Origin: a virus
Taxonomy: Duplodnaviria; Heunggongvirae; Uroviricota; Caudoviricetes
IMG/VR virus record: IMGVR_UViG_2778261300_000006
Location: 1-19,140 of that record
DNA length: 19,140 nucleotides
Direction: 5' to 3' (one strand)
This document shows positions 1,778 to 19,140 of the stretch, in pieces. The position numbers were made by a program, and so were the translations under genes. The notes beneath the pieces are model-generated. The model was not told the DNA's origin. It saw only the letters and a list, made by a program, of their open reading frames with translations, and ran no database searches. Position 1 is the stretch's first letter; the number at the start of each line of letters is the position of its first letter.

Positions 1778-2983
1778 GTGGCGATTTCATTTGAGATGCT
1801 GACAGCTCTGTATCGTCGTATGGAATTCCAAGAGGGGTTTCGTGTCGGTTCGCTGTTGCTCTTAGATCAGTCCGATTGTGATCTGGTTGATACTTTGCTT
1901 GATGATCCTCGTGAATATGGTCTTTCTATTGATACAGGCACTATCGCTCCAGGTAACACGATCATCCTACGTGTGACGTCACCACGGAGTGGACTGGGAC
2001 TTGTGTTTTCCACCCATGAAAAATTGCTAAATGCTCCAAAGCATCAGTGCCTTGAGCCAGCTAATTACTTCATCCTAGAAACAAAATTTCGTAATGATGA
2101 TGAAGATATCCCCGTTTTCATCAGCAACTACCGGAAGATTCTCGAGTTCGTTAACCTGCTAAAAGAGGCCGCGGCCTACTTTGATAACTCAACTTGTCAG
2201 TTAGTTTTTCTGAAAAAAGAAGTTATCAAGCTATTACCGCACTTCGCTGCAGAAAATGTACAAAATTTGCAAAGGGAGTATCTTGATAACCTTATAGCTT
2301 GTTTCAATGATGATACCCATAAGGATCAGAAGCTAGATATTCTGATTGAAAGTATTCAAGCAGTTAGTGATGGAATTGATTCACCTCTAGTATTCGCTTA
2401 TTTACTGGACAATATTCAGCGTCTGCATGAAAAGTTTCTGAAAGGGTATCGTATCTACTCTTCTGGATTCTCTTATGACAAAGTAATGGATCAACTGCGT
2501 GCTGCAAAAGTCGAAGAAATGGGTAAAATCCACAAAGCGTTTTCAGATATCCAGAACCATATACTTGGCATTCCTGTTGCCTCTGTTATCGTAGCTACCC
2601 AATTCAAAGTGGCTACGAAATGGTCAGGCCAAGGGATAACAAACACAATAATTCTTCTGGGATGCATTTTTGCTGCAACGTTAATCTGGCTGGCACTTTC
2701 GAACCAGATGCAATCTATAAAGGCCTTAGGCGAAGAAATTGAATACAAAGAAAAACAGATTAATAAGGAATATTCCTTCATTAAAGATGACGTGGCTGGT
2801 GTATTTAGCAGTATTTCTGCGCGACTAGACACGCAGAAACGTACGTTCTGGATTATACGTGGTGTTCTAGTTATGGGAATTATTACCGCTATCACTGTTT
2901 ATTTTTGGTACACAAAACCAGCCCTTGACTTCATGCAGTACTTGATTCACTGCATGAAGTCTTACTATTCGGTCAAAAGTTGA
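1778..2983 (+). CDS. Membrane protein with a large N-terminal soluble domain and two C-terminal TM helices; cargo gene B
   Basis: GTG at 1778 with GAGG 7 nt upstream, 2 nt after the stop of gene A (operon coupling). Hydrophobic segments ITNTIILLGCIFAATLIWLAL and TFWIIRGVLVMGIITAITVYFWY are separated by a charged helical linker. No recognisable enzymatic motif. Confidence 0.55.
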   Translation: MAISFEMLTALYRRMEFQEGFRVGSLLLLDQSDCDLVDTLLDDPREYGLSIDTGTIAPGNTIILRVTSPRSGLGLVFSTHEKLLNAPKHQCLEPANYFILETKFRNDDEDIPVFISNYRKILEFVNLLKEAAAYFDNSTCQLVFLKKEVIKLLPHFAAENVQNLQREYLDNLIACFNDDTHKDQKLDILIESIQAVSDGIDSPLVFAYLLDNIQRLHEKFLKGYRIYSSGFSYDKVMDQLRAAKVEEMGKIHKAFSDIQNHILGIPVASVIVATQFKVATKWSGQGITNTIILLGCIFAATLIWLALSNQMQSIKALGEEIEYKEKQINKEYSFIKDDVAGVFSSISARLDTQKRTFWIIRGVLVMGIITAITVYFWYTKPALDFMQYLIHCMKSYYSVKS

Positions 2984-3743
2984 GGATAATGAGTTCCTTC
3001 TTGCGACTGGATTTGCCAGTGATCTTGAGGTTGTAGCTGATATCAACCGACTGAATATTTAGACCGTTGAATGCCTGCCGCATTTCCGGGATATCGTTCA
3101 CCGATATAATCATCTTCCCTTTGATCCTGCGTGCTAAATCTGCCATATGATCATAATTTTCTAGTCCGAACTCCACACCATAACCTTCCGTTCCCCAGTA
3201 TGGAGGGTCACAGTAGAACAACGTATGCGGGCGATCATATCGTTCTATGCACTGTTGCCAGTCCATGTGTTCTATGACCGTTCTGGAAAGCCGCAGGTGT
3301 GCCGCTGACAGTTCTTCTTCAATACGCAGCAGGTTGAAGCGTGGCGGGGATATGGTGGAGGTACCAAAGCTGTGCTCCGCCACCTTGCCCCCAAACGCCT
3401 GCTTCTGAAGGTAATAGAACCGTGCTGCACGCTGGATATCCGTCAGTGTTTCTTCCGGGGTGATCTGCAGCCATTTGTAGATCTGCCGGCTGACCAGCGC
3501 CCATTTGAACTGGCGTACAAATTCTTCCAGATGATGTTTTACCACCCGATACAGGTTCACCAGCTCACCGTTGATATCATTAATGACTTCGATCTTGCCG
3601 GGTACCTTAAGAAAATAGAGCGCTGCTGCCCCACAAAACGGCTCCACATAACATTCATGCGCCGGAAACAGCGGCAGGATGTGTTTTGCAAGGCGGCGTT
3701 TGCCACCAATCCATGGAACGATGGGTAATGTCTGCATTTTCAT
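2973..3743 (-). CDS. dam: DNA adenine methyltransferase (Dam-like, D12-class N6-adenine MTase)
   Basis: 256 aa. N-terminal AdoMet-binding motif (EPFCGAAALYF), catalytic DPPY motif (FYCDPPYWG) and WIGGKRRL near the N-terminus. The 3' end overlaps the 3' end of cargo gene B by 11 bp (convergent). Confidence 0.85.
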   Translation of the reverse strand: MKMQTLPIVPWIGGKRRLAKHILPLFPAHECYVEPFCGAAALYFLKVPGKIEVINDINGELVNLYRVVKHHLEEFVRQFKWALVSRQIYKWLQITPEETLTDIQRAARFYYLQKQAFGGKVAEHSFGTSTISPPRFNLLRIEEELSAAHLRLSRTVIEHMDWQQCIERYDRPHTLFYCDPPYWGTEGYGVEFGLENYDHMADLARRIKGKMIISVNDIPEMRQAFNGLNIQSVDISYNLKITGKSSRKKELIILNF

Positions 3744-3990
3744 AATCTGTAAGCCTTTTACAATTATAAAAAATATGGCAGGCTAGTCTGGTCTCGCGAG
3801 ACTGACTGAACCTTGGTCGGCTCACAGCGCATTCCTGTGGGGCGATGGCCAGCCCGGTGTTCGGGTACCGGGCTGGTCGTTCTTTCAAAGCCATCATGCA
3901 GTGCACGTTTACATCTTCACTATTAACGCTGTTTAAAATCCGTATCCCGCCACATTTGTGATGCTGTCTCCACCAAACGAGGAGACACAC

Positions 3991-4341
3991 ATGAAAAACC
4001 TGAAAAAATTCATTCCCCCTGTTAAAAAACCTCGCCTCAGCGGCTGGCTGCTGACCTCAGTGCTGCTGCTGGGCACCATCGCTCTGGTCTCGCCACAGCA
4101 GTTGCCTGTTGTGATCTACAAGCTGGCACTCATCACGCTGGCAGCAGTGCTGGGTTACTGGCTTGACCGTTCGCTCTTCCCCAAAGCCCGTCCCGGTCAG
4201 TACCTGAAACATGACGACAGACTGATGGCTGAAGGGCGTTTCCCTGTGCAGACCGGCCTTCACCTTGTATTTTCTGCTGCGTTAATCCGCCGTGCACTGA
4301 TTGTTGCAGCGGTCTGTCTGGCTGTGGCAACAGGACTGTGA
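3991..4341 (+). CDS. Holin-like small membrane protein (2-3 predicted TM segments)
   Basis: ATG at 3991 with RBS GAGGAG at 3979..3984. 116 aa with hydrophobic stretches WLLTSVLLLGTIALV, VVIYKLALITLAAVLGYWL and ALIRRALIVAAVCLAVATGL. Stop overlaps the start region of the downstream lysis gene. Confidence 0.5.
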   Translation: MKNLKKFIPPVKKPRLSGWLLTSVLLLGTIALVSPQQLPVVIYKLALITLAAVLGYWLDRSLFPKARPGQYLKHDDRLMAEGRFPVQTGLHLVFSAALIRRALIVAAVCLAVATGL

Positions 4342-4343
4342 CC

Positions 4344-4886
4344 ATGAACTGGCCTCAAATCACCCTCATTATTCTGTTCGCCTTTGGTCTGGGCGTAACC
4401 GCCATCAGGCACGGAGAACCACGTAACGATAAATACAGCTTCTGGTGGCAGCTTGCTGGCAACCTGGTGATTGTCTGGCTGCTCTGGTGTGGCGGCTTCT
4501 TCAGTCAGGCCCGCGCAGCGCAGCCTCCGCAGGCTGCGCTGCAGTATCGCGATGATGTGATCCGTAATGCCCGGCTTGAATGGGGACTGTCTGCGCCGGT
4601 GGCCGATTTCGCCGCGCAACTGCATCAGGAAAGCGGCTGGCGACCTGATGCGGTCTCGCCGGCTGGCGCTCAGGGACTGGCGCAGTTCATGCCTGCCACT
4701 GCCGACTGGATAAGCCAGTTGATACCGATGCTGAGCAGTCGTGAGCCGTTTAATCCTGCATGGGCTATCCGGGCGCTGGTCAGCTATGACCGCTGGCTGT
4801 GGCAGCGCGTAAGCGCCGCCAACGACTGCGAGCGTATGGCCATGACACTGTCGGGCTATAACGGTGGTCTACACCCTGCGCCGTAA
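4344..4886 (+). CDS. Signal-anchored lytic transglycosylase (endolysin-like, SLT domain), apparently truncated or frameshifted
   Basis: N-terminal hydrophobic segment (WPQITLIILFAFGLGVTAI) followed by the family-1 SLT signature ...HQESGWRPDAVSPAGAQGLAQFMPATADWI... and YNGG. The ORF stops right after the YNGG motif; see the 4891..5016 feature. Confidence 0.6.
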   Translation: MNWPQITLIILFAFGLGVTAIRHGEPRNDKYSFWWQLAGNLVIVWLLWCGGFFSQARAAQPPQAALQYRDDVIRNARLEWGLSAPVADFAAQLHQESGWRPDAVSPAGAQGLAQFMPATADWISQLIPMLSSREPFNPAWAIRALVSYDRWLWQRVSAANDCERMAMTLSGYNGGLHPAP

Positions 4887-4890
4887 GGGG

Positions 4891-5016
4891 ATGCCTGTTG
4901 CCGACAAGTACGACGGAGCCGGCGGCAAGGTGAAGTACTGCCGTTATACCGATATCTACAAAGTCGCCGTGGTTGGTGGCGATGCCGGGTATCTCATTAC
5001 CGGTATCAGTAAATAA
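4891..5016 (+). pseudogene. +1-frame continuation of the transglycosylase gene (frameshifted 3' portion or separate 41-aa ORF)
   Basis: The +1 frame reads ...YTLRRKGMPVADKYDGAGGKVKYCRYTDIYKVAVVGGDAGYLITGISK and ends at 5016, exactly where the RBS (AAGGAGG) of the next gene begins. The frame switch would lie near the ggtggt run around 4862..4870. Confidence 0.4.
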
Positions 5017-6276: not shown

Positions 6277-6527
6277 TGAAAGAATACCGCTATTCCGGCC
6301 CGGCCAGCGGCGTCACGCTGTCGGACGGAACCGAAATCCTGCTCTGGCCGGGGAAGACGGTTTCCCTGCCGGAGGAGCATGAATACGTGAAGGTACTGGT
6401 GGCGCTGAAGCATCTGACGCCGGTACCAGAAGATACTAAACCCGCCGTCACACCGGCTGTGCAGTCACCAAAGCGCAGAAGCAGCAGTGACAGCGAAGTG
6501 AAAACGGAGGACTCCCATGGCAGCTAA
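6276..6527 (+). CDS. Small protein with a disordered, charged C-terminus (Mu gp38-like position)
   Basis: ATG at 6276 overlaps the upstream TGA. 83 aa. The 3' end overlaps the sheath gene start by 11 nt. Confidence 0.4.
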   Translation: MKEYRYSGPASGVTLSDGTEILLWPGKTVSLPEEHEYVKVLVALKHLTPVPEDTKPAVTPAVQSPKRRSSSDSEVKTEDSHGS

Positions 6528-7944
6528 CTATCTGCATGGCGTCGAAACCATTGAGGTGGAAAACGGAGCCCGCCCGGTTAAAACGGTGAAATCTGCCGTT
6601 ATTGGCCTGATTGGTACCGCCCCGATGGGGGATGTCAATACGCTGGTACAGTGCCTGTCTGAGAAAGACGCTGCGGCATTTGGCAGCCAGTTCACCGGCT
6701 TTACCATTCCGCAGGCGCTGGATGCGATTTATGACCATGGTGCAGGCACCGTTCTGGTCATTAACGTACTCGATCCGTCTGTGCATAAAACCGCTGTGGT
6801 CAGTGAGAATGTGTCGTTCGACAAGGCGACAGGCAGAGCCCGGCTGGCTAATCCGGTGGTCGCGCAGCTGGTACTGAAACCGGACAGCGACGGTCAGCCT
6901 TATGTTGAAGGTCAGGACTACTCGCTTGATGCACAGACCGGGGTGATTACTAACCTGGGTAAAAGCATTGCTGCAGATGCAACGGTGAAGGCCAGCTATA
7001 ACTATGCTGATCCGACCAAAGTCACCCCGGCTGATATCATCGGTACCGTTAACGCTGCAGGCAACCGTACCGGCATGAAGCTGCTTAACGACAGTTTTAA
7101 CCTGTTTGGCTACTTCGCCAAAATCCTGATTGCTCCGGTATTCTGCACCCAGAACAGCGTCTCGGTTGAGCTTATCGCCATGGCTGAGAAACTGGGAGCA
7201 GTAACCTATATTGATGCGCCGGTTGGTACCACTTTTGCGCAGGCTCTGGCGGGACGTGGCCCGGAAGGCACCATTAACTTTAATACCAGCTCTGACCGTG
7301 TCCGCCTGTGCTACCCGCATGTGAAGGTATATGACCCGGTGACGAACACGGAGCGTCTGGAGCCACTGAGCCAGCGTGCGGCGGGCCTGCGTGCCAAAGT
7401 CGACCTGGACAAAGGGTACTGGTGGTCATCCTCCAATCAGGAAATTCTGGGGATCACCGGCGTGGAGCGCCAGCTGTCGGCAATGATTGACGATCCGCAG
7501 AGCGAGGTGAACCTGCTTAACGAACAGGGGATCACCACGGTATTCAGCAGTTACGGCAGCGGCCTTCGTCTGTGGGGTAACCGGACGGCAGCATGGCCAA
7601 CGGTCACCCATATGCGTAACTTTGAGAACGTTCGCCGCACCGGTGATGTGATCAACGAGTCCATTCGTTACTTCAGCCAGCAGTACATCGACATGCCGAT
7701 TACTCAGGCGCTGATTGATGCACTGACGGAGTCGGTCAACGCCTACGGTCGCAAAATGACTGGTGATGGTGCGGTACTGGGCTTCCGTTGCTGGTTTGAT
7801 CCGGCCCGCAATCCGGAGACGGAGCTGGCCGCCGGGCACCTGTTGCTGAGCTACAAATATACGCCACCACCGCCGCTGGAGCGACTGACGTTTGAGACTG
7901 AAATCACCTCGGAATACCTGTTAACCCTGAAAGGGGGCAACTGA
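6517..7944 (+). CDS. Contractile tail sheath protein
   Basis: 475 aa with RBS GGAGG 6 nt upstream. Size and position are right for a myovirus sheath, and it is followed immediately by a tube-sized gene. Sequence is reminiscent of Mu L / P2 FI-type sheath proteins. Confidence 0.85.
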   Translation: MAANYLHGVETIEVENGARPVKTVKSAVIGLIGTAPMGDVNTLVQCLSEKDAAAFGSQFTGFTIPQALDAIYDHGAGTVLVINVLDPSVHKTAVVSENVSFDKATGRARLANPVVAQLVLKPDSDGQPYVEGQDYSLDAQTGVITNLGKSIAADATVKASYNYADPTKVTPADIIGTVNAAGNRTGMKLLNDSFNLFGYFAKILIAPVFCTQNSVSVELIAMAEKLGAVTYIDAPVGTTFAQALAGRGPEGTINFNTSSDRVRLCYPHVKVYDPVTNTERLEPLSQRAAGLRAKVDLDKGYWWSSSNQEILGITGVERQLSAMIDDPQSEVNLLNEQGITTVFSSYGSGLRLWGNRTAAWPTVTHMRNFENVRRTGDVINESIRYFSQQYIDMPITQALIDALTESVNAYGRKMTGDGAVLGFRCWFDPARNPETELAAGHLLLSYKYTPPPPLERLTFETEITSEYLLTLKGGN

Positions 7945-8465
7945 TGTCAAAGATTGAGATAAACCGAATCACGAATGCCAACATCTATCTGGATGGTACT
8001 AACCTGCTGGGACGGGCTGAGGAAGTTAAACTCCCCGATGTCTCCATGATTATGCAGGAGCACAAGGCACTGGGGATGGTGGGTAAGGTGGAACTCCCGG
8101 CTGGTTTTGACAAACTGGAAGGCGAAATCAAATGGAACAGCTTTTACCGCGATGCGATGTTGTCTGCCGCGAACCCGTACAAGTCGCTGGCGCTGCAGTG
8201 TCGCTCCAGCGTCCAGCGCTACAGCTCGCAGGGGCTGATCGACGAAATCCCGCTGGTCACCTTCCTGACAATTATGTTCAAGAAGAACCCGCTGGGGACG
8301 TTCAAACAGCACGAGAACGCCGAGTTCTCCAGTAGCTTCACCTGCACGTATATCAGACAGGTACTGGATGGTGAAGAGTTGCTGCAACTGGACTATCTGG
8401 CCAACATCTTCCGCGTCGGTGGCGTTGATCAACTGACTGACTATCGAATCAATATCGGGGGCTGA
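7944..8465 (+). CDS. Tail tube protein
   Basis: 173 aa. ATG overlaps the sheath stop (TGATG) and RBS AAGGGGG lies upstream. Canonical position after the sheath. Confidence 0.8.
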   Translation: MSKIEINRITNANIYLDGTNLLGRAEEVKLPDVSMIMQEHKALGMVGKVELPAGFDKLEGEIKWNSFYRDAMLSAANPYKSLALQCRSSVQRYSSQGLIDEIPLVTFLTIMFKKNPLGTFKQHENAEFSSSFTCTYIRQVLDGEELLQLDYLANIFRVGGVDQLTDYRINIGG

Positions 8466-8467
8466 CG

Positions 8468-8749
8468 GTGAGTGTTGAACTGACTGACAAAGGAGGGCGA
8501 TGTGCGTCACTGGGCATGTCAAATGGTACGTGGTTTACCCTCCTTGATATTCCGGGGGTGGAGACCCTCTTTAATACCCGTAAAACCAATGACCCGATTG
8601 ACTGCACACGTTCAAAGGCCCGCAAACTGGCCGATTTGATTGAAGCATGGGAGCCGCCCGACCAGTGGTTCTCCGGCACCGGCAACTCTGAGGGAAAGGC
8701 GCTTCTCATCGCTTTCCTGCGTAACTGCAAGGGTTTTCGCACTTGCTGA
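8468..8749 (+). CDS. Hypothetical small protein between tube and chaperone genes
   Basis: 93-aa ORF with GTG start at 8468 (alternative in-frame ATG at 8516). No recognisable family. Followed directly by a terminator-like hairpin. Confidence 0.3.
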   Translation: MSVELTDKGGRCASLGMSNGTWFTLLDIPGVETLFNTRKTNDPIDCTRSKARKLADLIEAWEPPDQWFSGTGNSEGKALLIAFLRNCKGFRTC

Positions 8750-8756
8750 CATCACA

Positions 8757-8778
8757 GGGGCTCCGGCCCCTTCTTTTT
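8757..8778 (+). terminator. Rho-independent terminator-like hairpin inside the tail operon
   Basis: GGGGC-tccg-GCCCC stem-loop (8757..8770) followed by TTCTTTTT (8771..8778). Confidence 0.45.
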
Positions 8779-8846
8779 AATCCCCTTTAATATCCGTCAC
8801 GTCCACCGCCAGACATACTGCTCTGAATTTACAAAGGAGTATGATC

Positions 8847-9182
8847 ATGTCACAGACCCAGTCCGATACTTTTACGCTGTCTTATCCTTTCACCACTGCT
8901 GCAGGTACCAGAATTGAACAGATTGAACTGAAACGCCTGACAGTAAAAGACCTGAAGCAGGTGCGCAAAATCAACAAAGACCCGACAGACTGGGACGAAC
9001 CACTGATTGCCCGTAGCACCGGTATCCTCCCGGAAGACCTCGATAACATGGATCTTGCCGACTATATGGAGCTGCAGAAACGATTTCAGAAAATCACTGG
9101 GCTGGGCAAGAGCGACAAAAACACTGATGCAGGTGCAGGGCCTGCTGGCGAGATGGTTCAGGTTTCAACCGGGGGAGATTGA
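8847..9182 (+). CDS. Tail assembly chaperone (P2 gpE / lambda gpG-type), upstream frame
   Basis: ATG at 8847 with AAGGAG 7 nt upstream (the 8841 ATG is too close to the RBS). Small acidic protein directly upstream of the tape measure gene, with an overlapping out-of-frame ORF, the hallmark of the conserved chaperone frameshift pair. Confidence 0.65.
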   Translation: MSQTQSDTFTLSYPFTTAAGTRIEQIELKRLTVKDLKQVRKINKDPTDWDEPLIARSTGILPEDLDNMDLADYMELQKRFQKITGLGKSDKNTDAGAGPAGEMVQVSTGGD

Positions 9183-9264
9183 TGCCCTCGATACTGACGA
9201 TCTGGAGATGTGGCTGGAGCAGGCTGAAGAGCAAATCAAAAGCGAGTTCGGCGACAATCAGTAA
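9007..9264 (+). CDS. Frameshift extension of the tail assembly chaperone (E'-like C-terminal extension)
   Basis: ORF in the +1 frame relative to 8847..9182, overlapping its 3' end. It encodes an acidic helical tail (...IDALDTDDLEMWLEQAEEQIKSEFGDNQ). It has no plausible independent start (TTG in the track). Only the 3' part (roughly 9170..9264) would be translated after the shift. Confidence 0.45.
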   Translation: MPVAPVSSRKTSITWILPTIWSCRNDFRKSLGWARATKTLMQVQGLLARWFRFQPGEIDALDTDDLEMWLEQAEEQIKSEFGDNQ

Positions 9265-9357
9265 CAACGTATCACTTAACAGCCGCCAGTCGCGGCTGTT
9301 CTGCATGGGTTTCAGACACTTCCCTTCCGTTTTTTTTGCTTTCAGAGGATAGCCACC

Positions 9358-11823
9358 GTGGCCAGTGAATTTTCAGTCGGCGTCATTATTGGCGGCATTG
9401 TCGGGAGCAGCTTCCGCTCAGCCGTCAGTGGCACCCGACGCGCCCTTGATTCCCTTGGTGATACCTCCCGCCGTCTGCAGGAACGCCAGAATGCCTTAAC
9501 CCGGGCAACAGAACGTTATGGTCAACTGGGTTCTTCCCGGATGCAGCATCTCAACAGCGAGTTGCTGCGGGTAAGCCGCACCATGGAGCAAATTGAACGT
9601 CAGCAGCGCCGTCTGTCAGCAGTATCAGCCACCGGTGATGCGTTGAAGGCTAACCGCCTGGCGCTCTATGGTCAGGGTGCAGAAACCTATGCTATTGGCA
9701 GAACGCTGGGCGCACCGGTCATGGCCTCGGTTAAACAATATGCCTCGTTTGAATCACAGTTGCGGGATATCAGTGTCACAGGAGACCTGGATGCAAAACA
9801 GGAACGTGCAATTGGCCAGGCTATCAGACAGGCCTCGCTGAAGGTTAACCAACTGCAGGAGTCTCTGTTAGGGGGAGTCGGACAATTAGTTGCTGATGGT
9901 ATGGCCCCCGAACGGGCAGCAACGTTTGCAGAGATGCTTGGAAAGACCGCTACAGCAACCAAAGCCGATATGACCGACCTTGCCAAAATGACTTATGCCT
10001 TCAGCGATGCACTCAGAATCACTGATGCGAAAGAACTTGAACAGGCGTTTGGTATTGCGGCAACAGGAGCCAAACTTGGGTCATTTGAGCTGAAGGATAT
10101 GGCAAAAGCATTACCCGGTATGGCTAAAGCCTTCGCTGCTCGTGGTATTTATGGAAAAGATGCGATTACCCAGATTGTTGCCAGTCTGGAGGTCGGTAAA
10201 GGTAGTGGCTCTGCAGAGGAAGCGGTCACCAATATGTCCAACTGGCTGGCAGCAATGGGCCGCGGAGATACCATCCAGAAATATGCTAAAGCCGGGGTGG
10301 ATTACCAGGGGTCAATGCAGAATTACGTCGCTCAGGGTTTTTCGCAGTACGAAGCTTCACTGATGATTGCCAACCGTTTTATCGACAGTAAAGGCAAAGC
10401 GTTCTTGCAGCAATGGAAAGCTGCAGGAGCAAGAGGCGATCAGGAAGGTCAGCAGAAACTCATGGAGTCATTTGGTCTGGCTGAGGTCTTTACCGATATT
10501 CAGACTGTCAACCATTTACTGTCAATGCGACAGGGCTGGGATAAATACCTTTCCAGTAAGCAGGAAATGAATACTCCGGCTGCAATGTCTACCCTGGATA
10601 AGGATGCTGCAAAGCAGAATGATACGCTTGAAGGTCGCTGGCGCAGAATGCAGATCGGCTTTAATGATTCTGCTATCAGCATCGGGCAATCCTTGCGTCC
10701 GGCTTTGCTCCAGTTGGGTGAAACATTTATTCCTTTAATGGACAGTGTTGGCAAATGGATAGCGGCAAATCCGCAGCTCGTCAGCAGCACCATAAAGGTT
10801 GTGGGCGCATTACTCGCTTTCAGGATGGCCACTATCGGTCTCAAGCTTGGGCTGAATCTCCTTCTTTCCCCCTTTGTAAGCGTCTGGAAAAATGCTGTTT
10901 TACTTCGGGCCAACTGGCTTCGTCTGACGCTCGCACTGGGGGAAGGCGGTAAACTCCGCTGGCTGGTGACAGGCTTTGGTGCTGTCGCCAGAGGAGCCAG
11001 AACACTGGGTGGTGTGCTCTCAGGGGGGCTGGTTCGCGGAATTATGAGCGCCGGGCGTGCCGTTCTCTGGATTGGCCGGGCGCTGCTGATGAATCCCATC
11101 GGTCTCGTTATCACCGCCGTCGCGGCAGCAGCTTACCTTATCTACCGCAACTGGGGCGCAGTCAGTAGCTGGTTTAAACAGCGCTGGGCTGACATTCAGG
11201 AAGCCTTTAACGGCGGCATCGTGGGAATTGGTAAACTGCTGGTTAACTGGTCTCCGGCTGGTCTGCTTTATAAAGCCTTTGCGGCTGCGCTGAAATATCT
11301 CGGCGTTGATCTGCCGGCGAAATTCACCGACTTCGGTGGTCATCTTATTGACGGGTTGATAAATGGCATCAGAAACAAATGGGCGTCACTCAAAACCAGC
11401 GTAACCGGAATGGGTGACAGCATCAGTGACTGGTTCAGCGAAAAGCTGGGCATCCATTCACCGAGTCGCGTGTTTATGGGCTTTGGTGACAATATCGCGC
11501 AGGGTGCCGCCATTGGCCTGCAACGGACCACTCCGCTTGCTGCACTGGCCGGGCAGCGCCTGGCCGCTGAAATGACACCGGATGTTCCCCGTATCCCGTC
11601 GCCGGAAATCATGGCTGCCGGATATTCAGGCCGTGGCGCAACTGCAACCGGCGGTGGAGCGTCTGGCGGTATCCAGGTCAGCTTTAATCCTCAGTTTTTC
11701 CTCAATGGTAAGGAAACCGCAGCGCCTGCCGGGCTGGCTGGTGCCCTGAATATGAGCCTGCATGAGCTGGAAAAAATGCTGGAGCGTCTGCTGGCTCAGA
11801 AACAACGTAAGGAGTACAGCTGA
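9358..11823 (+). CDS. Tail tape measure protein
   Basis: 821 aa. GTG start with AGAGGA 8 nt upstream. Long helical N-terminal region, Gly/Ala-rich hydrophobic central segments and overall architecture typical of tape measure proteins. Confidence 0.85.
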   Translation: MASEFSVGVIIGGIVGSSFRSAVSGTRRALDSLGDTSRRLQERQNALTRATERYGQLGSSRMQHLNSELLRVSRTMEQIERQQRRLSAVSATGDALKANRLALYGQGAETYAIGRTLGAPVMASVKQYASFESQLRDISVTGDLDAKQERAIGQAIRQASLKVNQLQESLLGGVGQLVADGMAPERAATFAEMLGKTATATKADMTDLAKMTYAFSDALRITDAKELEQAFGIAATGAKLGSFELKDMAKALPGMAKAFAARGIYGKDAITQIVASLEVGKGSGSAEEAVTNMSNWLAAMGRGDTIQKYAKAGVDYQGSMQNYVAQGFSQYEASLMIANRFIDSKGKAFLQQWKAAGARGDQEGQQKLMESFGLAEVFTDIQTVNHLLSMRQGWDKYLSSKQEMNTPAAMSTLDKDAAKQNDTLEGRWRRMQIGFNDSAISIGQSLRPALLQLGETFIPLMDSVGKWIAANPQLVSSTIKVVGALLAFRMATIGLKLGLNLLLSPFVSVWKNAVLLRANWLRLTLALGEGGKLRWLVTGFGAVARGARTLGGVLSGGLVRGIMSAGRAVLWIGRALLMNPIGLVITAVAAAAYLIYRNWGAVSSWFKQRWADIQEAFNGGIVGIGKLLVNWSPAGLLYKAFAAALKYLGVDLPAKFTDFGGHLIDGLINGIRNKWASLKTSVTGMGDSISDWFSEKLGIHSPSRVFMGFGDNIAQGAAIGLQRTTPLAALAGQRLAAEMTPDVPRIPSPEIMAAGYSGRGATATGGGASGGIQVSFNPQFFLNGKETAAPAGLAGALNMSLHELEKMLERLLAQKQRKEYS

Positions 11824-14585: not shown

Positions 14586-14641
14586 ACCTTCTTAAACGCC
14601 TTTAATATCGGCGCTTACTTCCCGGGGGCAATACTGCCTCC

Positions 14642-14989
14642 ATGAAAACGACCTCAGTATTCTGGCAACCAGCTCTGCAGGCTCCCGGCGAAATCGTCCG
14701 GGGGCTGGATGATATCCGGCAGTCCATCCAGATCATCCTGCGGACTCCCCGCGGCAGCGACCCGCATCGCCCGGAGTTCGGCAGCAATCTGCACCTTTAT
14801 ATCGACTGGCCTGTCGGCCGGGCCATTCCGCATGTGGTTCGCGAATCCGTCGATGCCATCAGGCGCTGGGAACCCCGCTGCCAGCTTATGTCGGTTAAAC
14901 CCGCCGTCGACGGCGAACATCTTACGCTCCGGGTGAGCTGGAAAGGCTCAGACGGACAACCCCGTACTCAGGAACTGCTATGGCGCTGA
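14642..14989 (+). CDS. Baseplate wedge protein (gpW / gp25-like)
   Basis: 115 aa. Pattern ...IRQSIQIILRTPRGSDPHRPEFGSNLHLYIDWP... is typical of the GPW_gp25 family. 3' end overlaps the J-like start. Confidence 0.75.
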   Translation: MKTTSVFWQPALQAPGEIVRGLDDIRQSIQIILRTPRGSDPHRPEFGSNLHLYIDWPVGRAIPHVVRESVDAIRRWEPRCQLMSVKPAVDGEHLTLRVSWKGSDGQPRTQELLWR

Positions 14990-16656: not shown

Positions 16657-17622
16657 ATGGCAAATCTACCCGAAACCCCGCAGTGGGAAAGCGGCATCTA
16701 CCAGATTGAGGTCTCTGACCCCGTTCTGGGCGGACCTGACGGAATTTCTAACCGCCAGGCTAAACAACTGGCCAGCCGAACGTCATACCTCAAACAGAAG
16801 GTCGAAAAAAGCGGAACAGACCTGGCTGCACATATCGCGGCAGTTGACCCGCATACCCAGTACGCGACGAAAGCCAGTCCGACATTCACCGGCACACCAA
16901 CAGCACCTACACCTGCAAATGGTGATAACAGCAAAAAGCTGGCGACGACGGAGTTTGTGGCCAAAGCACTTGCGGCACTTGCAGGCAGCGCCCCTGAGAC
17001 ACTGGATACGCTTAAAGAGCTGGCTGACGCTCTCGGTAATGATCCAAACTTTGCGACTACGGTACTGAACAAGCTGGCGGAAAAGCTGGCTAAAGACCAG
17101 AACGGCGCAGATATTCCTGAGCCTGCGCTGTTTGTCAAAAACCTTGGTTTGGGGGAAGGCTCTGCACTGCCCGTTGGTGTGCCTGTTCCGTGGCCCTCAG
17201 CCACACCGCCAGCAGGGTGGCTGAAATGTAACGGAGCAGCATTTTCTTCTGAAATGTACCCCAAACTGGCAAAGGCTTACCCCGCGAATAAATTACCGGA
17301 TTTACGGGGTGAGTTTATTCGTGGCTGGGATGACGGGCGCGGGATTGATCCTGGTCGCCAGTTGCTTGGGTGGCAGAAAGGTACTTTGGTTGGTGGTAGA
17401 GATGACAATGATGCCGCAGTTGATATTTCATATATGAGTAACGGAAATAGTATTGATTACGGTGGCGATAAAACATTTTCAACGAATTACCGGAGTGATT
17501 ATTTATGGTATGCAATTCTGGGTAACGTCACTGGTCGTGCCAAAGCTGCTTTAAGTGGGTCCTTTTTTAATGTAACTCGTCCACGCAACATCGCCTTTAA
17601 CTACATTGTGAGAGCAGCATAG
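16657..17622 (+). CDS. Tail fiber protein: constant N-terminal part fused to variable C-terminal cassette 1 (tail-collar domain)
   Basis: 321 aa. The constant region contains the conserved fiber segment SPTFTGTPTAPTPANGDNSKKLATTEFVAKALAALAGSAPETLDTLKELADALGNDPNFATT (P2 gpH-like). The variable part begins at about 17146 with the tail-collar-type motif GWLKCNGAAFSSEMYPKLAKAYP...LPDLRGEF and ends ...RPRNIAFNYIVRAA. Confidence 0.8.
   Translation: MANLPETPQWESGIYQIEVSDPVLGGPDGISNRQAKQLASRTSYLKQKVEKSGTDLAAHIAAVDPHTQYATKASPTFTGTPTAPTPANGDNSKKLATTEFVAKALAALAGSAPETLDTLKELADALGNDPNFATTVLNKLAEKLAKDQNGADIPEPALFVKNLGLGEGSALPVGVPVPWPSATPPAGWLKCNGAAFSSEMYPKLAKAYPANKLPDLRGEFIRGWDDGRGIDPGRQLLGWQKGTLVGGRDDNDAAVDISYMSNGNSIDYGGDKTFSTNYRSDYLWYAILGNVTGRAKAALSGSFFNVTRPRNIAFNYIVRAA
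17132..17157. other. Putative Gin/Hin/Cin-type recombination crossover site A, at the constant/variable junction of the fiber gene
   Basis: ttgtcaaaaacc-tt-ggtttgggggaa: a 12+2+12 bp arrangement whose left half matches the recalled hix/gix half-site (TTCTTGAAAACC / TTCCTGTAAACC) at 9 of 12 positions. Homology with the downstream repeat copy starts exactly at the central dinucleotide. Confidence 0.5.
17144..17345 (+). repeat. Repeat copy A (5' conserved part of variable fiber cassette 1)
   Basis: About 200 bp nearly identical to 17628..17829 (direct) and to the reverse complement of 19035..19140 (inverted; truncated by the window end). Confidence 0.85.
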
Positions 17623-18115: not shown

Positions 18116-18733
18116 TCAACTGGCTGCTGCCAGAGGCATTTCCGGCCAGTTGATATCCGGTGCAGTGCTGATGTCAGTCGCATTAAGCACATCTATGAAA
18201 TCAAGCACGGCGTTTAGTTTTTCCGTCTCCTGGGGCGTCAATCGGCGTCCGGCTCGTAGTTTGAGATTTATAAGCTCAACAGATGCCATTGCCTGTTCCT
18301 CAAGTTGCTGACGATGCGCTCCGGCAGCTTCCAGTTCTGCTGCGTGCTGTCGTCCCGCATCTGTCACCCAGGTCTCACCATCCCAGACATCATAGATAGT
18401 AGCTGGCTGTTTCACCGTCGTATCAGGAGGGTAATCTCCCGGTTGTGTGATTTGCACAGCGTTACCATTCTCTGTGCTGTAAACCGTTTCGCCTCTGTGG
18501 TCTGGAACATATTTCCAGATGTTCTGGTCGGTATCACGACAGACAGCGAAGCCGGGGCGTTTTTCTGGTGGCGCGTCAATGCATGAGTGAGCCGGAATTC
18601 CAACACCATAAGCGAGATACTCAACAGTGGCAGAGAGATATTCACGGTTTTCAGCATCGTAGTTATAAACGGTAATATCGCCTGCAGTTATAGCGATACC
18701 ATTCTGATCAAGTACTGCAGCAGCATTATTCAT
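18116..18733 (-). CDS. Tail fiber assembly chaperone (Mu U/U'-like)
   Basis: 205 aa. C-terminal ...INWPEMPLAAAS resembles the conserved C-terminus of Mu U / Tfa-type fiber assembly proteins (recall). ATG overlaps the stop of the inverted cassette 3 (TAATG). Confidence 0.75.
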   Translation of the reverse strand: MNNAAAVLDQNGIAITAGDITVYNYDAENREYLSATVEYLAYGVGIPAHSCIDAPPEKRPGFAVCRDTDQNIWKYVPDHRGETVYSTENGNAVQITQPGDYPPDTTVKQPATIYDVWDGETWVTDAGRQHAAELEAAGAHRQQLEEQAMASVELINLKLRAGRRLTPQETEKLNAVLDFIDVLNATDISTAPDINWPEMPLAAAS

Positions 18734-19140
18734 TAAGTAGCCCTTACAATATAGTTAAACGCAATATTACGGGGGCGGTTTTCCGTTCCTGTATTCCCTC
18801 CGTTGGCACCTAATCTATAAACACCACGAGTGCCAATAGCACGTAGTGAAGATGGAACTTTTACACCTGACTCATCTGTTTTAACAATCCCGCCATCACC
18901 GTATGTAGCCAGTATACCAGGGTTTGTTCCTGCACGGGTGCTATTTGCGGCAAGCCCTTCACCAGTCCATAACTCCATATAGTGAATATGATCTATAACC
19001 GAATGTGATTGTGCATTAAGCAAGGAACGCCCTGAATCAATTCCCCGCCCGTCATCCCAGCCGCGAATAAACTCACCCCGTAAATCCGGTAATTTATTCG
19101 CGGGGTAGGCTTTTGCCAGTTTGGGGTACATTTCAGAAGA
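18733..19140 (-). CDS. Inverted alternative tail-fiber C-terminal cassette 3 (partial; 5' end beyond window)
   Basis: Minus-strand frame encoding ...SSEMYPKLAKAYPANKLPDLRGEFIRGWDDGRGID-(unique middle)-...NRPRNIAFNYIVRAT. Open to the window edge. Followed by its own chaperone on the same strand. Confidence 0.65.
   Translation of the reverse strand, partial: SSEMYPKLAKAYPANKLPDLRGEFIRGWDDGRGIDSGRSLLNAQSHSVIDHIHYMELWTGEGLAANSTRAGTNPGILATYGDGGIVKTDESGVKVPSSLRAIGTRGVYRLGANGGNTGTENRPRNIAFNYIVRAT
19035..19140 (-). repeat. Repeat copy C (inverted; truncated by window end)
   Basis: The reverse complement matches 17730..17829 and 17246..17345. The inverted crossover site itself would lie about 85 bp beyond the window. 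Confidence 0.8.

Follow-up and report, generated by a model that had tools for sequence, protein, structure and literature searches.

A small accessory gene, a conserved terminator-like hairpin, and a putative Mor/C-type late promoter between the tail tube and chaperone genes of a BcepMu-like Escherichia coli prophage

The interval between the tail tube gene and the tail assembly chaperone gene of this prophage is probably the junction of two late transcription units, at which a cargo gene is followed by a terminator, and then by a promoter of the Mor/C type. The stretch of DNA that was analysed, referred to here as the window, has a total length of 19,140 nucleotides, and represents the late region of a BcepMu-like prophage of Escherichia coli, a transposable prophage of the Mu type. 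The observations that carry this reading are a small coding gene of accessory character (ORF93), a conserved hairpin behind it, and a sequence motif that recurs with a fixed geometry. An earlier note on the same DNA had recorded an open reading frame of 93 amino acids, together with a GC stem and a T-run, and had placed them in the middle of the tail operon. The reading frame and the hairpin are both present, but the mid-operon placement gives way to a probable operon boundary, given that a conserved Mor/C-type promoter motif lies directly downstream from the hairpin, and recurs before the holin and gpW genes.

The segment from 7900 to 9400 is matched at 80-99.9% identity in 641 of the 5426 complete E. 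coli genomes (approximately 12%), and is also present in the phages PhiKM (classified as Bcepmuvirus), KP12, and Phi06_2974. The tube protein, with an amino-acid identity of 92-99% among related loci, is encoded by the core gene that comes last in the upstream late transcription unit, and the chaperone gene, judged by its setting, is most likely the first gene of the downstream unit. The spacer between ORF93 and the chaperone gene is 91 nt long. The RefSeq start of the chaperone is at 8847, and an in-frame ATG at 8841 is too near the Shine-Dalgarno sequence. A search of the whole window against Rfam at the gathering thresholds returned no match. The features of the region are as follows:

3923-3965, plus strand: predicted sibling late promoter before the holin gene, composed of TTAACGCTGTTTAAAATC, 19 nt, and GATGCT (3960-3965)
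6517-7944, plus strand: sheath gene (Pfam)
7944-8465, plus strand: tail tube gene of the P2 FII type (Pfam PF04985, E = 2e-53)
8468-8749, plus strand: ORF93, accessory gene for a protein of 93 amino acids, PHROG 1239/DUF7739-like (full-length PHROG match, 54 intact alleles)
8756-8771, plus strand: hairpin of the putative terminator (top-ranked site of the scan, -12.2 kcal/mol, invariant stems)
8772-8778, plus strand: T-run of the putative terminator, TCTTTTT (from the sequence; mean pairwise identity 0.88)
8777-8794, plus strand: putative box for a Mor/C-family activator, TTAATCCCCTTTAATATC (recurrence of TTAANNNNNNTTAAWATC; half-site identity 0.97)
8795-8813, plus strand: promoter spacer of 19 nt, drifting in sequence and constant in length across the 43 spacers compared (19 nt in 42 of them)
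8814-8819, plus strand: -10-like hexamer, CATACT (ATACT invariant in the 43 spacers)
8820-8846, plus strand: leader of the predicted downstream unit, with a Shine-Dalgarno sequence, AGGAG, at 8835-8839 (from the sequence; moderate conservation, identity 0.81)
8847-9182, plus strand: tail assembly chaperone gene of the gpE type (Pfam PF10109, E = 5e-22; RefSeq start)
9358-11823, plus strand: tape-measure gene (Pfam)
14592-14635, plus strand: predicted sibling late promoter before gpW, composed of TTAAACGCCTTTAATATC, 20 nt, and AATACT (14630-14635)

The hairpin (AGGGGC-TCCG-GCCCCT) starts 6 nt past the stop codon of ORF93, and its arms, at 8756-8761 and 8766-8771, form a stem of 6 bp, five of which are G-C pairs, around a 4-nt loop of the UNCG type (TCCG, 8762-8765). 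With its T-run, it occupies positions 8756-8778, a difference of one base from the 8757-8778 that had been recorded previously. The hairpin alone has an energy of -12.2 kcal/mol, and its 61-nt context has a z score of -2.3 in comparison with shuffled sequences. A generic terminator scan of the window recovered 19 sites against the 17.8 expected, and, as the scan is not enriched across the window, a match of this kind proves nothing by itself. The site at 8756-8778 ranks first in the scan, and is its only intergenic match on the plus strand.

The comparative alignment of the tube-chaperone interval, which had been proposed as a check, revealed conserved stems, a conserved box, and a conserved -10 hexamer, with a 19-nt spacer that drifts. 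Both arms of the stem are invariant in 43 distinct ORF93-chaperone spacers from related prophages, in which the 19 nt nearby have an identity of only 57%. The loop varies among these spacers (TCCG, TTCG, TGCG, TTAG, and ATCA), while the T-rich run is retained, and the hairpin is still found in the loci in which ORF93 is damaged.

MAFFT misaligned the hairpins from distant genera, and the comparison across genera is one of the same place occupied by a different stem sequence. In BcepMu, the tube gene is immediately followed by GGCCCGC-TTCG-GCGGGCC and TTTTTTAATC, and in the Ralstonia phage YO107_2 by GCCCAC-TTCG-GTGGGC and ATTTTTCGTTT, which suggests that the terminator is older than ORF93. A hairpin and a T-run are also found in Photorhabdus. 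In the Salmonella STM4212-type cluster and P2, the tube gene is followed by a GC hairpin, but the T-run is poor or absent.

The anatomy of the site, with a GC stem-loop and an immediate U-rich tract past a stop codon, and the retention of its structure beyond neutral drift are those of an intrinsic terminator, to which the earlier note had likened the hairpin, and positions 8756-8778 look like a conserved one. The occurrence of a T-run behind the hairpin in the E. coli group, Photorhabdus, BcepMu, and Ralstonia, despite their differing stems, is difficult to reconcile with the principal alternative, in which the hairpin mainly stabilises a 3' end, serves as a processing signal, or attenuates weakly within one long late transcript, and the chaperone and tape-measure genes are expressed mostly through read-through. 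This alternative appears rather improbable, although the stem is short (6 bp, for the energy given above), and the hairpins of P2 and the Salmonella STM4212-type cluster, without a proper T-run, would be compatible with a pure role in RNA stability. The promoter box, in addition, starts on the last two T of the T-run, so the conservation of the run could stem from this A/T-rich box alone. The box itself is part of a separate promoter motif immediately downstream from the hairpin, which would make read-through unnecessary for the downstream genes.

This motif begins with the box at 8777-8794, which has the structure TTAA-N6-TTAA-TATC (in its general form, TTAA-N6-TTAA followed by WATC), and ends with the CATACT hexamer, which has an identity of 0.98 across the 43 spacers. 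Between the two, the spacer at 8795-8813 has 28 distinct sequences among the 43, with a mean identity of 0.57. When the hexamer is taken as -12 to -7, the centre of the dyad (8783.5) falls at about -42.5, and the start of transcription would be located at approximately 8825-8827. A sigma-70 scan found no standard promoter at this site, with the -35 hexamer being absent, and the -35 position falling within the variable spacer.

The sequence TTAANNNNNNTTAAWATC has three exact copies in the window, against 0.12 expected, and none of 200 shuffled sequences reached three. These copies start at 3923 (before the holin gene), 8777, and 14592 (before gpW), all of them intergenic and on the late strand. 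The genome of PhiKM has four copies (0.10 expected), which are located before the holin gene, the protease/scaffold gene, the chaperone gene, and gpW, with those at 32248 and 17223 being the counterparts of the holin and gpW sites, respectively. The gpW site also has counterparts at 17430 in the Pseudomonas phage Komp_PAO1_1, and at 30774 in BcepMu.

Given that three of the counted sites had contributed to the derivation of the pattern, Komp_PAO1_1 was used as an independent test. This GC-rich genome of 40 kb, the tube protein of which is 53% identical, contains exactly four copies of TTAA-N6-TTAA, against 0.01 expected, and these precede the same four blocks, that is, the head, chaperone, gpW, and lysis genes. 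The box before the chaperone gene is followed by 19 nt, and then by GATGCT. The independent confirmations are, then, the window site at 3923, the head-gene site of PhiKM, and all four of the sites in Komp_PAO1_1. Recognisable versions of the box are also found in the Pasteurella phage AFS-2018a and in BcepMu, in which the copy after the tube terminator is degenerate (TTAA-N6-CTGA). A Mor-family protein (PF08765) is encoded by PhiKM, Komp_PAO1_1, and BcepMu, and the activator gene lies outside the window.

A -10 hexamer without a -35, a dyad near -43.5, the heading of several late units, and the presence of the activator family in relatives are all features of the late promoters of the Mu type, and positions 8777-8819 are most likely an activator-dependent late promoter of the Mor/C type. 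As this conserved motif lies directly after the hairpin, and recurs before the holin gene and gpW, the downstream genes most likely have their own promoter, and the resemblance of the box and hexamer to the Mor/C-dependent late promoters of Mu points to an operon boundary at this site, rather than an attenuator in the middle of an operon.

It is unlikely that the TTAA-N6-TTAA box is a site for some other DNA-binding protein, whether nucleoid or related to transposition or packaging, or is mere A/T-rich intergenic sequence. The box is a low-complexity palindrome, to which a promoter role has been assigned from its sequence, and the BcepMu copy at the tube-chaperone position is degenerate. A fixed distance to a conserved -10-like hexamer over a drifting spacer would not be expected of such a sequence, however, and nor would a distribution that is restricted to the gaps before late gene blocks, or the excess of copies in the GC-rich genome of Komp_PAO1_1. 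The geometry is also that of the C-dependent promoters of Mu (PMC2582627).

The gene upstream from the hairpin opens with GTG 2 nt past the stop codon of the tube gene (8463-8465), behind a GGGGG run, and has 93 codons before its TGA stop. The earlier note assigned it to no recognisable family, and allowed that it might be non-coding. It has, however, a full-length match to PHROG 1239 (E = 2.8e-47, residues 1-93 on positions 1-96 of the 96 of the profile). Its match to the Pfam family DUF7739 (PF24881), at 25.8 bits and E = 1.7e-5, falls below the gathering cut-off of 27 bits, whereas a lambdoid homolog scores 49.2 bits, above this cut-off, and 10 of 49 diverse members of the ORF93 family match DUF7739 at E <= 0.01. 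By these scores, ORF93 is a close relative of DUF7739 that stands formally outside that family. Its RefSeq entry is the hypothetical protein WP_000110117.1.

A word-indexed search recovered 34 relatives of ORF93, down to an identity of 48% and mostly of exactly 93 amino acids, in Escherichia, Citrobacter, Serratia, Shigella, Photorhabdus, and Morganella, and the alignment of the homologs is conserved from residue 1 onward. When 1.84 billion representative proteins were searched exhaustively with a profile, only 74 clusters were recovered, nearly all of approximately 93 amino acids, with identities down to 27%. The median dN/dS is 0.10 (Nei-Gojobori, 1131 pairs from 54 distinct intact alleles), in comparison with 0.025 for the tube gene, and the variable columns are distributed among codon positions 1, 2, and 3 as 50, 33, and 83. 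All 54 alleles begin at the same position, with GTG, ATG, or TTG. The dN/dS and the conserved length of the homologs contradict a non-coding reading, and ORF93 is, on this comparative evidence, a coding gene under purifying selection.

Three other reading frames or starts were considered and rejected. The antisense frame at 8449-8742, which is open in 47 of the 54 alleles, is best regarded as a shadow frame, since it shares its third codon positions with the sense frame, and it is broken in the lambdoid-type homolog. The ATG at 8500, behind AAGGAGG, is out of frame, and yields an ORF of only 15 codons. The ATG at 8516 would exclude 16 residues that are conserved among distant homologs.

The predicted protein is hydrophilic overall (10.3 kDa, pI 7.6, GRAVY -0.33) and would be soluble, and AlphaFold2 models it with confidence as a small alpha/beta fold (pLDDT 88, pTM 0.79). 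A Foldseek search of this model against the PDB gave a best E of 0.12 (DapD), with weak matches to YfbM and DMP12 (TM approximately 0.5, E approximately 1), and a search against BFVD recovered only unnamed or uncharacterised proteins. A profile search among the PDB sequences, a search with PADLOC and NCBIfam, and a full-text literature search for DUF7739 each returned no match.

The place of ORF93 in the genome is variable. There is no gene between the tube gene and the chaperone gene in Mu (gap of 9 nt), P2 (56 nt), and BcepMu (121 nt), which confirms the earlier statement that Mu-like and P2-like clusters have no extra gene here, and the same holds for the Salmonella STM4212-type cluster (51 nt) and the Pseudomonas phage Bise (5 nt). 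Some relatives have a second small gene (PF13876, the N4 gp49/Sf6 gp66 family) between the tube gene and ORF93. In 13 of 67 non-redundant tube-linked loci, ORF93 is not intact (truncated, frameshifted, or otherwise altered), and all but one of these 13 have an intact tube gene; premature stops or frameshifts occur at the loci L011, L021, L076, L083, and L096, and the N-terminal half has been lost in four species of Photorhabdus. Homologs with approximately 55% identity are found in 37 lambdoid viral contigs, in none of which does a tube or chaperone gene lie close by. The genes around the homolog are mosaic: one contig has a DnaC-like gene, Ead/Ea22, NinB, NinG, and Q, a second has DUF2303 with a lambda-type integrase, and a third has a C5 methylase together with a DnaT domain. 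A core tail protein would be present wherever the homologous sheath-tube-chaperone module occurs, and ORF93 is absent from several such modules; judged by its distribution, it is a real, dispensable accessory gene, and no core tail gene.

The earlier note had also raised the possibility of a moron, which in its classical form has its own promoter and terminator, and would be expressed in the repressed prophage as a lysogenic-conversion gene. The part of this proposal that stands is the insertion of an extra, non-core gene between genes that are adjacent in relatives, with a terminator following it (criteria in PMC2920897), and its presence in another class of phage. The scan of the plus strand upstream from ORF93 found no sigma-70-like promoter, and the gene begins right behind the tube stop codon. 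It has an ordinary GC content (0.539, in comparison with 0.523 for the window, with a GC3 of 0.585 that is inside the range of the neighbouring genes), and the terminator appears to be ancestral, given that BcepMu has one without ORF93. A classical moron is thus quite unlikely, and the ordinary GC and the lack of a preceding promoter-like site suggest that ORF93 is cargo on the expression signals of the tube operon, rather than a self-contained moron. Similarly unlikely is a lineage-specific component of tail assembly or structure, such as a helper of tube polymerisation, for while ORF93 starts close behind the tube gene, is under purifying selection, and is present in most of the enterobacterial members of the group, homologous tubes do without it in BcepMu, Bise, the Salmonella cluster, Mu, and P2, its homologs lie in the early regions of lambdoid siphophages, far from tail genes, and 12 loci combine a damaged ORF93 with an intact tube gene.

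The distribution and setting of ORF93 support a non-structural protein that is horizontally exchanged, and would be made late, probably in abundance. A tentative prediction is that it acts as a host-interaction or counter-defence factor, a role that is possible rather than probable. A broader reading, in which ORF93 and DUF7739 form an unrecognised family for counter-defence or host takeover that is small, soluble, and produced in bulk, and is exchanged between lambdoid early regions and the 3' end of the capsid-sheath-tube operon of BcepMu-like phages, and the slot between the tube gene and the terminator is a general hot-spot for accessory genes, is somewhat more doubtful. If this were true, the slot would allow accessory genes to share the highest level of late expression.

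The mechanism that is proposed here for the junction of two late units would begin with an upstream unit which, in intact relatives, starts at a promoter in front of the protease/scaffold gene, includes the capsid, cement, neck, sheath, and tube genes, and ends with the cargo gene, ORF93, and which would thus carry all the proteins that are needed in hundreds of copies. The cargo gene would have been inserted between the stop codon of the tube gene and an older terminator, and would be translated by coupling to the tube gene. The hairpin and its U-run would end the upstream transcripts at 8778, provide the mRNA with a stable 3' end, and insulate the two units from one another. The Mor/C-type promoter would then start the next unit at the position given above, for the chaperone, tape-measure, hub, and baseplate genes, with a further promoter before gpW. 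The expression of the high-copy proteins (capsid, sheath, and tube) would, in this way, be uncoupled from that of the low-copy tail proteins.

The suggestion that the hairpin sets the stoichiometry of sheath and tube relative to the downstream genes is retained in part, as the separation of high-copy and low-copy genes fits the layout. The mid-operon attenuation on which it relied is replaced by an operon boundary with a promoter motif downstream, and stoichiometry would be set by two promoters and the terminator that separates them, rather than by partial read-through alone.

The elements of this arrangement are individually ordinary, that is, an intrinsic terminator, a promoter of the Mor/C type, and a small conserved phage gene, and ORF93 is not exceptional. 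For the BcepMu-like prophages, which are found in approximately 12% of the complete E. coli genomes, the tail genes should not be annotated as a single operon, as they most likely form separate units that are headed by Mor/C-type boxes, with a terminator after the tube and cargo genes. The pattern TTAA-N6-TTAA-WATC/N19/NATNCT can be used to search for late promoters in this group of phages, and the recurring boxes offer concrete sites for the study of the Mor/C-family activators outside Mu. Since ORF93 occurs in two unrelated genomic contexts, it is also a reasonable candidate for an accessory or anti-defence screen.

No published description of the arrangement of ORF93, terminator, and promoter was found in a search the coverage of which did not extend to the BcepMu genome paper or Margolin et al. 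1989, and a literature search on the late promoters of BcepMu recovered nothing relevant. The best-described counterpart of the putative promoter is the C-dependent late promoter of Mu, which has a -10 hexamer, no -35, and a 16-bp dyad at -43.5 that is bound by C (PMC2582627). Four such promoters head the late units of Mu, each with an imperfect dyad that is bound by a dimeric activator (PMC2582627; PMC4461284; see also bioRxiv 10.1101/2025.05.02.651988). The motif described here is similar in its -10 without a -35, its dyad at approximately -42.5, and, in relatives, its four copies and Mor-family gene. It differs in the dyad itself, which is TTAA-N6-TTAA here and of the ATAA/TTAT type in Mu, as judged by eye. 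Mu also has neither a promoter nor a terminator in the 9 nt between the tube gene M and the chaperone gene gp41, in contrast with the present lineage, which has putative promoters before both the chaperone gene and gpW.

The gp40 (tube)-gp41 (chaperone) interval of BcepMu is similar in its gene order, and in its GC hairpin with a TTCG loop and TTTTTTAATC. Before the chaperone gene, it has GACAATGT where the window has GACATACT, and boxes of the same type precede its holin, protease, and gpW genes. Unlike the window, BcepMu has no ORF93 or other cargo in this gap, a different stem sequence, and a degenerate box. In the FETUD operon of P2, the tube and chaperone are homologous, and the 56-nt spacer between FII and E contains a GC-rich hairpin, but there is no T-run, cargo gene, or internal promoter, and the single terminator annotated for the F operon is located after ogr. 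The late promoters of P2 use Ogr, and no Mor/C protein.

Morons, in the concept of Hendrix and Juhala, have their own promoter and terminator and a deviant GC content, and are inserted between genes that are adjacent in relatives (PMC2920897). ORF93 resembles them in its position between such genes, in a slot that also holds PF13876, and in its presence in another class of phage. It differs in having neither a promoter of its own nor a deviant GC content, and in a terminator that appears to be borrowed from the host operon. In T7 and f1, terminators located after gene 10 (T-phi) and gene VIII, respectively, raise the transcripts of abundant structural genes over those of the downstream genes. 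The arrangement described here is similar in that the predicted terminator directly follows the structural genes that are needed most abundantly. In T7 and f1, however, the downstream genes need read-through, whereas here a predicted activator-dependent promoter follows at once.

In comparison with its near-identical counterpart in E. coli MS20655, the prophage in the window carries a clean deletion of 8,513 bp at the junction 4869/4870, where 2 nt are shared. The missing segment contained the spanin genes, both terminase genes, the portal gene, the F- and G-like genes, the protease/scaffold gene and the putative head-gene promoter, as well as parts of two further genes, namely the 3' portion of the one for the SLT endolysin and most of the one for the capsid. 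The window prophage is therefore headless, and its putative holin promoter now runs directly into the genes for cement, neck, sheath and tube. The junction 4869/4870 was found in none of the complete E. coli RefSeq genomes searched.

The following elements were noted at the putative gpW promoter and in the leader of the holin transcript:

3966-3971 (GTCTCC) and 3981-3986 (GGAGAC), inverted repeat in the holin transcript leader, ahead of the holin ATG at 3991
14630-14635, AATACT, -10-like element of the putative promoter before gpW

The inverted repeat, which is also present in phage PhiKM, would sequester the holin Shine-Dalgarno sequence, located just 5' of the ATG. The start codon of gpW (14642-14644) begins with the A at 14642, 7 nt past the end of the AATACT, and no Shine-Dalgarno sequence precedes it; given this short gap and the lack of a ribosome-binding motif, the transcripts from the putative gpW promoter may be leaderless. 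Two ATG codons lie in frame at the start of the chaperone gene, one at 8841, from which the mechanical ORF list begins it, and one at 8847, the RefSeq start, 7 nt 3' of an AGGAG (8835-8839).

The slot between the tube gene and ORF93, the 93-aa accessory gene that precedes the chaperone gene, is a hot-spot for small accessory genes, since it is occupied in some relatives by a second cargo gene (2718-3011 in locus L005; also in L008, L010, L015, L021, L046 and others), which encodes a 97-aa product of the N4 gp49 / Sf6 gp66 family (PF13876). In Photorhabdus spp. (L017-L020, about 3001-3200), the ORF93 homolog has lost its N-terminal half by deletion, and the leftover 61-aa frame, which differs from that of the tube gene, begins within the 3' end of the latter, with the hairpin 3' of the shortened homolog being retained. 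In Pantoea stewartii (L010, about 3290-4680), an insertion of approximately 1.3 kb, which may be an insertion sequence, lies between ORF93 and the chaperone gene, and splits the terminator hairpin within its 3' arm (GGGGCTTCGGCCC/TGAGGG...). The tube-chaperone gap of Pseudomonas phage Komp_PAO1_1 is 390 nt long, and contains one further frame:

L111 1515-1706, minus strand, 63-aa ORF, flanked by the terminator-like hairpin and the putative promoter box

In its deposited annotation, this gap has a 39-aa ORF on the plus strand instead.

A second junction of a terminator-like hairpin and a putative promoter separates the G-like virion morphogenesis gene from the protease/scaffold gene:

PhiKM, L102 about 4940-4990, GGCTGTA...TACAGCC, then TCTGTTTTAT
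BcepMu, L107 about 18740-18790, CCCGTAAAG...CTTTACGGG, then TTTGGTT

At the far end of the window, the plus-strand tail-fibre gene is directly adjoined by genes of the opposite orientation:

18116-19131, minus strand, tail-fibre assembly gene and tail-fibre gene fragment

This arrangement resembles a Mu G-type invertible segment for host range.
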